This document shows positions 6,062 through 42,812 of a stretch of DNA of 64,000 nucleotides, piece by piece. A model generated the notes under the pieces. The model was not told the origin of the DNA, made no database searches, and worked only from the letters and a program-made list of their open reading frames with translations. The translations under genes and the position numbers were made by a program. This DNA is from Escherichia coli (GTDB taxonomy: Bacteria > Pseudomonadota > Gammaproteobacteria > Enterobacterales > Enterobacteriaceae): the NCBI RefSeq assembly GCF_001677475.2, contig NZ_CP015229.1, one strand, 5' to 3'. Each line of letters opens with the position of its first letter. Within the stretch, counting starts at the first letter, position 1.

Positions 6062-7066
6062 ATGCGTAAGTCAGTTATCGCGATTATCATCATCGTGCTG
6101 GTAGTGCTTTACATGTCTGTCTTTGTCGTCAAAGAAGGTGAGCGCGGTATTACGCTGCGTTTTGGTAAGGTACTGCGTGACGATGACAACAAACCTCTGG
6201 TTTATGAGCCGGGTCTGCATTTCAAGATACCGTTCATTGAAACGGTGAAAATGCTCGACGCACGTATTCAGACCATGGACAACCAGGCCGACCGCTTTGT
6301 GACCAAAGAGAAGAAAGACCTGATCGTCGACTCTTACATCAAATGGCGCATCAGCGATTTCAGCCGTTACTACCTGGCAACGGGCGGTGGCGACATTTCG
6401 CAAGCGGAAGTGCTGTTGAAACGTAAGTTCTCTGACCGTCTGCGTTCTGAAATTGGTCGTCTGGACGTGAAAGACATCGTCACCGATTCCCGTGGTCGTC
6501 TGACCCTCGAGGTACGTGACGCGCTGAACTCCGGTTCTGCGGGTACAGAAGATGAAGTTACTACCCCGGCGGCAGATAACGCCATTGCCGAAGCGGCAGA
6601 GCGCGTAACGGCTGAGACGAAGGGCAAAGTTCCGGTCATCAACCCGAACAGTATGGCGGCGCTGGGTATTGAAGTTGTCGATGTGCGAATTAAGCAGATC
6701 AACCTGCCGACCGAAGTGTCTGAAGCAATCTACAACCGTATGCGCGCCGAGCGTGAAGCGGTAGCGCGTCGTCACCGTTCACAAGGTCAGGAAGAAGCGG
6801 AAAAACTGCGCGCGACTGCCGACTATGAAGTGACCAGAACGTTGGCTGAAGCTGAGCGTCAGGGCCGCATCATGCGTGGTGAAGGCGATGCAGAAGCAGC
6901 CAAACTGTTTGCTGATGCATTCAGTAAAGATCCGGACTTCTACGCATTTATCCGTAGCCTGCGTGCTTATGAGAACAGCTTCTCTGGCAATCAGGACGTG
7001 ATGGTCATGAGCCCGGATAGCGATTTCTTCCGCTACATGAAGACGCCGACTTCCGCAACGCGTTAA
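6062..7066 (+). CDS. hflC: FtsH modulator HflC (SPFH/band 7)
   Basis: 334-aa ORF starting 2 bp after hflK stop; N-terminal TM plus SPFH domain. Confidence 0.95.
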   Translation: MRKSVIAIIIIVLVVLYMSVFVVKEGERGITLRFGKVLRDDDNKPLVYEPGLHFKIPFIETVKMLDARIQTMDNQADRFVTKEKKDLIVDSYIKWRISDFSRYYLATGGGDISQAEVLLKRKFSDRLRSEIGRLDVKDIVTDSRGRLTLEVRDALNSGSAGTEDEVTTPAADNAIAEAAERVTAETKGKVPVINPNSMAALGIEVVDVRIKQINLPTEVSEAIYNRMRAEREAVARRHRSQGQEEAEKLRATADYEVTRTLAEAERQGRIMRGEGDAEAAKLFADAFSKDPDFYAFIRSLRAYENSFSGNQDVMVMSPDSDFFRYMKTPTSATR

Positions 7067-7095
7067 TATAACGACTGCGGTACAGGTCAATAAAG

Positions 7096-7132
7096 CCACC
7101 GCATCCTCAGGGATGTCGGTGGTTTTCTTTTT
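7096..7132 (+). terminator. Rho-independent terminator after hflC
   Basis: Inverted repeat CCACCG...CGGTGG followed by TTTTCTTTTTC. Confidence 0.5.
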
Positions 7133-7147
7133 CTATAAGGATAATCA

Positions 7148-7345
7148 ATGAATTCGACAATCTGGCTGGCGCTTGCCCTGGTTTTGGTGCTGGAAGGTTT
7201 AGGGCCGATGCTTTACCCGAAGGCATGGAAGAAGATGATCTCTGCGATGACCAATTTGCCCGATAATATTTTACGTCGTTTTGGCGGTGGACTTGTGGTT
7301 GCGGGCGTTGTGGTCTACTACATGTTGAGGAAAACGATTGGCTGA
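7148..7345 (+). CDS. yjeT: small inner-membrane protein YjeT
   Basis: 65-aa hydrophobic ORF at the K-12 position between hflC and purA. Confidence 0.8.
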   Translation: MNSTIWLALALVLVLEGLGPMLYPKAWKKMISAMTNLPDNILRRFGGGLVVAGVVVYYMLRKTIG

Positions 7346-7390
7346 ACAAAAAACAGACTGATCGAGGTCATTTTTGAGTGCAAAAAGTGC

Positions 7391-7418
7391 TGTAACTCTG
7401 AAAAAGCGATGGTAGAAT
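7391..7418 (+). promoter_or_regulatory. candidate sigma70 promoter for purA (-35 TGTAAC, -10 TAGAAT)
   Basis: Hexamers with ~16 bp spacing about 30 bp upstream of purA ATG; not experimentally anchored here. Confidence 0.3.
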
Positions 7419-7426
7419 CCATTTTT

Positions 7427-7443
7427 AAGCAAACGGTGATTTT
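7427..7443 (+). promoter_or_regulatory. PurR-box-like sequence upstream of purA
   Basis: AAGCAAACGGTGATTT, about 11/16 match to PUR box ACGCAAACGTTTTCTT. Confidence 0.25.
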
Positions 7444-7445
7444 GA

Positions 7446-8747
<1,302 letters not shown>

Positions 8748-42149: not shown

Positions 42150-42812
42150 TCACTCACCCGCCAGTGCGCGCGGGAACAGCACATTATTTTCCAGACTAAT
42201 GTGATCCATCAGGTCATCAATCAATTCATTGATACCGTTATACATCGCTTTCCAGGTGGTGCAGGCTTCCGGCGGCGGTGTGACATTATTGGTGGTGTGT
42301 TTAATCACTTCCAGCAGTTCGCCCGCTTCATCGTGCTCGCTTTCCATTACGCTGATTGGCCCCATTGCCTGGCTGCCCATGCCTTGTTTGATCATCGGGA
42401 AGAGGATCTGCTCTTCTTTCATCATGTGGCTGGAAAGCTCTTCATGCAGCATAGTCAGGTATTTTGTCAGCCCTTTTGGCACGCTCGGTTTGTCGGCGTG
42501 AACGCGCTCGACTTTAGTCGCTTGCAGGATCAGCTCCGGCAGTTGCTCGCGGTGACGATCGTGGTAGCGCACGATGATATGGTCGATGATTTCTGCCAGC
42601 GGGGCGCTACGCCAGTCTTTCTCAATCGGTTGTTCAGCAAGCTTTGCCAGCTCAGCTTCAATGACCTCAACATCCAGCTCTTTACGTGCCGCCGCACGCG
42701 CCAGCGTTTGCTTACCGCCGCAGCAGTAATCCATATCATATTTACGAAACAGCGCTGAAGCGCGAGGAATAGAGAGCGCCAGTTCACCTAAAGGTTGGTC
42801 GCGATAAGCCAT
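42150..42812 (-). CDS. ytfE: iron-sulfur cluster repair di-iron protein YtfE (RIC)
   Basis: 220-aa ORF with hemerythrin-like His/Glu residues. Confidence 0.9.

Follow-up and report, generated by a model that had tools for sequence, protein, structure and literature searches.

The closest described system to the interval studied here is the purA promoter of Escherichia coli K-12, for which RegulonDB lists two PurR operators; the two are the same locus with no sequence difference, and the K-12 promoter is characterized by weak PurR control, a pair of low-scoring operators, and ChIP-chip occupancy with adenine. The canonical PurR operators (those of purF, purL, purMN, purHD, and others) are 16-bp near-palindromes (ACGCAAACGTTTGCGT), and purA is similar to them with respect to the presence of a central CpG and an A-G-AAAC half-site, and to an overlap of the promoter or start region. 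The distal purA box, at 16.5 bits, is within the canonical range (9.5–24), but unlike the canonical operators it sits within a coding sequence, ~90 bp before the start; the proximal box differs from them in having one conforming half, its right half being the Shine-Dalgarno sequence. The location of the distal box in the yjeT coding sequence is reminiscent of the purB operator, which acts as a roadblock, in that the distal box could, by analogy, block upstream transcripts, and purA resembles purR, which has two downstream sites, in carrying two separated weak sites. Unlike the purB and purR operators, however, the distal purA site belongs to another gene and precedes the main purA promoter.

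Control of purA by purR is reportedly two- to threefold and exerted through a pair of operators in the 5′ flank; a 1994 study is said to have found that each is necessary in vivo. A further control of purA, approximately twofold, is said in the same study to be independent of purR and not to be conferred by the 5′ flank. The published operator pair is probably 7328–7343 and 7427–7442 of the window (the whole 64,000-nucleotide stretch of E. coli DNA that was analyzed).

In ChIP-chip experiments the purA region was bound by PurR only with adenine (log2 1.19, at 4,402,483), and no motif was reported for purA at P < 1e-4 (Cho et al., 2011). The ChIP-chip position corresponds to window position 7222, at a resolution that cannot separate the two boxes. 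In a 2008 modeling paper the “two PurA operators” rank lowest in strength among 21 known PurR sites, and PurR control of purA is called controversial; a 2012 paper refers to two PurR sites annotated at purA in RegulonDB; and a 2024 review describes purA as an exception without a PUR box, repressed by MarA instead. The secondary literature is thus divided on whether purA has any PUR box, which makes a check of the assignment useful.

Genomic Context

Comparison with K-12 MG1655 (NC_000913.3, 4404000–4404800) revealed base-for-base identity over window positions 7190–7562, and K-12 experimental data therefore carry over base for base. Over the 801 bases around the interval, many E. coli chromosomes show 100% identity, and in these the region is annotated as hflC-yjeT-purA. 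The purA coding sequence (7449–8747, + strand), which encodes adenylosuccinate synthetase (432 residues), is given by both the open reading frame list and RefSeq annotation; its ATG at 7449 corresponds to 4404687 in NC_000913.3. The adjoining upstream gene, yjeT (7148–7345, + strand; 65 residues, DUF2065), is likewise present in the open reading frame list and in the RefSeq annotation of identical E. coli sequence, and is separated from purA by an intergenic region of 103 bp. No terminator was predicted between yjeT and purA, and a terminator comprising a hairpin and a T-run was predicted after hflC (~7093–7130). The yjeT ATG (7148) is within ~18 nt of this hflC terminator, with TATAAG and GATAAT directly upstream of the ATG. 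The interval 7391–7443 is the ordinary, already studied E. coli purA promoter with its short leader; the regulation of purA by PurR and MarA in K-12 is textbook material, and the locus is already known.

Core Promoter and Transcription Start

The initial annotation had proposed a purA promoter followed by a weak PurR box, and all of its elements are present upstream of purA where it had placed them: TGTAAC (7391–7396), a spacer of exactly 16 nt (7397–7412), TAGAAT (7413–7418), and AAGCAAACGGTGATTT (7427–7442). TAGAAT has the A at position 2 and the T at position 6 that are required of a σ70 −10 element. It is preceded by TGg (7410–7412), which the initial annotation did not mention, and the two together form an extended −10 element, TGGTAGAAT (TGgTAGAAT, 7410–7418, + strand). 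With both strands of the 64 kb counted, there are only six matches to the pattern TGNTANAAT, the purA copy being 31 nt before the ATG, and among the promoter elements and the proximal box it is the extended −10 alone that stands beyond chance on sequence statistics.

The −35 region (7390–7396, + strand) is weak. It can be read as TGTAAC (7391–7396) with a 16-bp spacer, which matches TTGACA at 2/6 positions, or as CTGTAA (7390–7395) with a 17-bp spacer, which is a slightly better fit (3/6), although neither register is good. The designation of TGTAAC as a −35 element did not hold up: the hexamer varies freely between species, and a consensus promoter scan of 6800–7800 reported no promoter. An extended −10 promoter does not require a TTGACA-like −35, and the purA promoter is of the extended −10 type with a poor −35.

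Upstream of the −35 region is an A-tract, CAAAAAGTG (7381–7389, + strand; −46 to −38), that resembles a proximal UP-element subsite, with 8/9 positions matching the consensus AAAAAARNR; this tract may have an UP-like role. Downstream, an 8-nt discriminator, CCATTTTT (7419–7426, + strand), separates the −10 element (−14 to −9) from the start. In its A-tract (−46 to −38), 8-nt discriminator, C two bases past the −10, and start 9 nt after the −10, the purA promoter is similar to rrnB P1; it differs from rrnB P1 in its extended −10, its poor −35, and its AT-rich discriminator.

Transcription start sites were obtained from Table S2 of a 2025 MarA study (PMC12052159), which uses U00096.2 coordinates and draws on a compilation of 28,107 sites (Warman et al., 2021). 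The list contains two + strand starts upstream of purA, 4402688 and 4402589 (PMC12052159). The offset to the window was fixed by two 15-mers with printed centers in the same table, GGTGATTTTGAAAAA (centered at 4402703, window 7442) and ACATGTTGAGGAAAA (centered at 4402588, window 7327). The start at U00096.2 4402688 is A7427 (+ strand), which is 9 nt past TAGAAT, precedes the ATG by 22 nt, and is the first base of the proximal box. This position supports the promoter call: in the comparison with the mapped K-12 start, which here is taken from a single, permissive high-throughput list, the listed start fits TAGAAT. The second listed start, A7328 (+ strand; U00096.2 4402589), is of uncertain status and is the first base of the distal box. 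No convincing −10 for this start could be read from the sequence, with TCTACT having no A at −11 and TACTAC no T at −7, and no hexamer at a suitable spacing combining these two bases. Both listed starts, which are 99 bp apart, thus coincide with the first base of a PUR box.

The conservation of these elements was analyzed in one scan of species-representative genomes using a degenerate PurA N-terminus pattern, which yielded 120 loci (55 Enterobacterales, 61 Vibrionaceae, and 4 others). TA[GA]AATYC is observed at the same place in 116/121 Enterobacterales and Vibrionaceae sequences. The longer element TGnTAGAATCC(A/T)TTTTTAA is essentially invariant in both orders, again in 116/121 sequences, with the discriminator varying only between A and T at 7421. 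At a fixed distance of 20 nt from the −10 there is an A-run followed by CTG (AAAAAGTGCTG in enterics, AAAAAATGACTG in vibrios). Free variation is seen in the spacer and in the stretch from yjeT to the A-run. TGTAAC is conserved no further than TG (TGTATA, TGATCA, TGAATC, and TGAAAC occur in its place), CTG is all that is kept in the −35 region, and the mean number of TTGACA matches across species is 2.6 at a 16-bp and 2.83 at a 17-bp spacing. The invariance of the −10 region across two bacterial orders, together with the start listed 9 nt past TAGAAT, bears out the promoter call.

These observations suggest that σ70 RNA polymerase would recognize the promoter via the extended −10 TGgTAGAAT, aided by the A-tract at −46 to −38 and with a weak contribution of the −35. 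Transcription would then proceed from A7427, giving a 22-nt leader with the Shine-Dalgarno sequence GGTGA (7435–7439, + strand), which is 9 nt before the ATG at 7449, is invariant in enterics, and overlaps the right half of the proximal box.

Candidate MarA Site

MarA is reported to repress purA via a backward marbox over the −35 region. A marbox-like sequence, ACAGCACTTTTTGCACTCAA, overlaps the −35 on the − strand (7374–7393) and is a candidate for this repression site. In a comparison by hand with the marbox consensus AYnGCACnnWnnRYYAAAYn, its GCAC element is perfect and 9/14 specified positions match. Like the backward marbox reported by Schneiders et al. (2004), the GCAC-bearing 20-mer on the − strand lies over the −35, the difference being that only 9/14 positions match. 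The sequence fits the repression by MarA that has been reported for purA. A second GTGC is located 8 nt upstream, at 7379–7382. purA is a curated, high-quality MarA target that was not seen by ChIP-seq, and a 2025 screen employing a 15-nt marbox definition chose other 15-mers, centered at window 7327 and 7442 (PMC12052159).

The Proximal PUR-like Box

The proximal box AAGCAAACGGTGATTT (7427–7442, +1 to +16) is a candidate low-affinity PurR operator or half-operator. It had been put forward as an 11/16 match to the PUR box; comparison with the consensus ACGCAAACGTTTTCNT gives 11/16 only when the N position is counted. Matches at this level number 158 in the window versus 142 ± 12 in Markov simulations, with ~0.22 expected in the 103-bp intergenic region. 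We also scored the box with a symmetrized PurR position weight matrix built from 28 ChIP-derived motifs, the training sites of which score 9.45–24 bits (Table 1 in Cho et al., 2011). The proximal box scores 3.7 bits, below the weakest ChIP-derived motif (9.45 bits); it ranks about 125–147 in the window, and such a score occurs once per 877 bp.

The two halves of the box are very different. The left half, AAGCAAAC, scores 10.1 bits, where the median of real half-sites is 9.0. The right half, GGTGATTT, scores −6.4 bits, which is below all 56 real half-sites (minimum 3.4); it has a T at position 14, where C is present in 53/56 real half-sites, and it is the Shine-Dalgarno GGTGA. The assignment of a proximal PurR box is therefore borne out in part: the 11/16 match and the central CG are there, whereas the right half (−6.4 bits) and the total (3.7 bits) lie outside the range of bound sites. 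On its sequence the proximal box would be at best a low-affinity half-operator. It may, we infer, be one of the two published purA operators. Searches of the full texts of papers for both 16-mers (AAGCAAACGGTGATTT and AGGAAAACGATTGGCT), on either strand, gave no match.

The central CG of the proximal box (C7434/G7435) is kept in most enterics, and the sole position of the box that varies in enterics, 7433 (A, T, or C), is the most degenerate position of real half-sites. In Rosenbergiella, Morganella, and the vibrios, AGCAAnC is kept and the central CG is lost. In enterics, conservation of this box cannot be attributed to PurR, since the whole leader is invariant there, also in genomes without the distal box (Cedecea-like and Serratia).

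The Distal PUR Box

The best match to the PurR matrix in the window, ranking first of ~128,000 positions in the 64 kb, is a second box, AGGAAAACGATTGGCT (7328–7343), that the initial annotation had not included. It scores 16.5 bits and lies at −99 to −84 relative to the start at 7427, in the last codons of yjeT. Within 260 nt upstream of the purA ATG the next best scores after it are 3.7 bits (the proximal box) and −6.3 bits. Further upstream, CGGATAGCGATTTCTT (7014–7029, inside hflC and 435 nt upstream) scores 7.4–9.5 bits, above the proximal box. Elsewhere in the window, the PurR matrix also matches GCGCCAGCGTTTGCTT (42698–42713, 14 bits) and AGGTCACCGTTGGCGT (54656–54671, 11.5–14.3 bits).

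The distal box is retained at 10–17 bits in ~40 Enterobacteriaceae species despite changes in the C-terminal residues of YjeT, where it is found with the endings RKTIG, TKTIG, TKTVG, TKTIN, TKSLN, and RRTFA. Analysis of synonymous fixation in the last six yjeT codons of 49 species shows TTG in 49/49, the rare AGG in 25/25, AAA in 37/37, ACG in 38/38, ATT in 33/33, and GGC in 38/39. Equal fixation is seen in just one of the 22 degenerate yjeT codon columns from −33 to −11, most of which have third-position entropies of 1–2.4 bits. This pattern provides strong evidence, as judged from sequence comparison, of DNA-level constraint at 7324–7343, consistent with a functional operator, and the distal box is probably the higher-affinity purA operator. 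The frozen stretch comprises the last ~10 yjeT codons (7314–7345), of which ~12 nt upstream (ATC TAC TAC ATG) are not accounted for by the box.

In every enteric genome with both boxes, the distal one is 98–99 bp from the proximal one despite heavy sequence divergence in between, with the exception of one genome (L048), in which the spacing is 87 bp, about one helical turn less. The distance from yjeT to purA is equally constant (100–104 bp) in species without the distal box. PurR looping between the boxes was considered and not adopted: PurR is a dimer without a tetramerization domain, and the intergenic length is just as constant where the distal box is absent.

Possible Modes of PurR Action

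We consider it probable, though well short of certain, that 7391–7443 comprises a σ70 core promoter and a 22-nt leader on which PurR acts weakly, via the distal box and the half-operator at +1 to +16. The weak PurR control of purA that had been suggested from the sequence is supported by ChIP-chip binding with adenine and by the two weak operators reported, but the box on which the suggestion relied is only a half-site, and the better box had been missed.

The mode of action of each operator can be inferred as follows. Weak control, two- to threefold as reported, would be exerted through two operators, a better one at −99 to −84 and a poorer one at +1 to +16. PurR with hypoxanthine or guanine, bound at +1 to +16, may sterically hinder the binding or escape of polymerase, with the low affinity of this site resulting in a small regulatory effect. 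For the distal site, possible roles are an increase in local occupancy or a block to transcripts entering from yjeT. A conflict between operator and ribosome-binding site within the same bases would lead both to the degenerate right half of the proximal box and to a small regulatory range.

An alternative with a real, if minority, chance of being correct is that the proximal box is non-functional, a chance half-site made up of the first transcribed bases and the Shine-Dalgarno sequence, and that PurR acts only through 7328–7343, e.g. by blocking transcripts from yjeT or from the start at 7328 in a manner analogous to the purB roadblock. The matrix scores are consistent with this alternative, with 11/16 matches occurring at chance frequency, the right half of the proximal box at −6.4 bits, and its total of 3.7 bits far below the weakest ChIP-derived motif at 9.45. 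The conservation data point the same way: the distal box is under DNA-level selection, and the leader is equally conserved where that box is absent and partly so in vibrios without a PUR box. Of the two boxes, the distal one is closer to the ChIP position (window 7222), and the listed start at 7328 coincides with its first base. Transcripts leaving yjeT would meet no predicted terminator before purA, and purB provides an established case of a PurR roadblock within transcribed DNA. Conversely, two purA operators have been reported and RegulonDB lists two sites; the proximal box is the only other CG-centered candidate within 260 nt of the ATG; and a site at −99 to −84 cannot alone occlude a promoter that starts at 7427. 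Both sites are also said to be needed in vivo.

Leader Conservation and Possible PurR-Independent Control

Conservation of the promoter region extends into the leader. The start of the leader, AGCAAnC, is kept from Enterobacterales to Vibrionaceae, although the gene upstream of purA differs. The core promoter and leader are kept in vibrios as well, most of which lack a PUR box in the 260 nt before the ATG. The depth of conservation of the promoter and leader (7381–7448) is unusual for non-coding DNA.

We regard it as doubtful, and assign a low probability to the proposal, that a second, PurR-independent control, acting through promoter kinetics or the leader, accounts for how deeply the −10, discriminator, and leader are conserved and is the main constraint on 7410–7448. 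Candidates for such a control are sensitivity to ppGpp/DksA, the concentration of the initiating ATP, or a translational effect, and each of these would fit both views of the proximal box. The retention of TGnTAGAATCC(A/T)TTTTTAA and AGCAAnC in vibrios, mostly without a PUR box within 260 nt, is consistent with a control of this type, as is the rrnB P1-like geometry of the promoter (an A-tract from −46 to −38, a C two bases past the hexamer, and a start 9 nt after the −10). The reported ~twofold purR-independent regulation of purA is, moreover, said to be unexplained. The 5′ flank, however, is reported not to confer that regulation, and the discriminator is AT-rich, unlike those of classic stringently repressed promoters. 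A literature search on purA promoter kinetics, ppGpp, and DksA found nothing relevant. Nor did the leader give signs of a structured element: an Rfam search of 6900–7700 (E ≤ 1) returned no family match, and for neither the short nor the long leader was the fold better than that of shuffled sequences (z-scores −0.41 and −0.74).

The discriminator CCATTTTT (7419–7426) is the exact reverse complement of AAAAATGG (7445–7452), which covers the purA start codon; pairing between the two is possible only in transcripts starting upstream of 7427. This 8-bp complementarity is probably coincidental, since the A/T polymorphism at 7421 breaks a pair and cannot be compensated.

Finally, it is highly improbable that TAGAAT is not the main purA promoter and that transcription comes chiefly from the start at 7328 or from hflKC-yjeT read-through, as, although a second start is listed at 7328 and the stretch between yjeT and purA has no predicted terminator, the start listed at 7427 is rightly placed for TAGAAT, the extended −10 is conserved in two orders while vibrios have no yjeT upstream, the start at 7328 has no convincing −10, and a terminator follows hflC.

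Implications for purA Regulation

With respect to the E. coli locus, the results have little significance beyond correct annotation. The comparative picture that emerges is of a deeply conserved extended −10 promoter, with a strong PUR box in the 3′ end of yjeT and a mere half-site at the start point. The frozen yjeT codons provide an example of an operator constraining the coding sequence of a neighboring gene. The reach of the conservation into vibrios hints that purR-independent control could sit in the core promoter or leader. It is unlikely, though plausible, that in Enterobacteriaceae PurR control of purA is exerted mainly via the box in the yjeT codons, with the proximal box a by-product of a promoter and leader conserved for another reason. 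If this were true, the promoter and leader might be conserved for a kinetic or translational control that does not depend on PurR, possibly the unexplained second arm of purA regulation.
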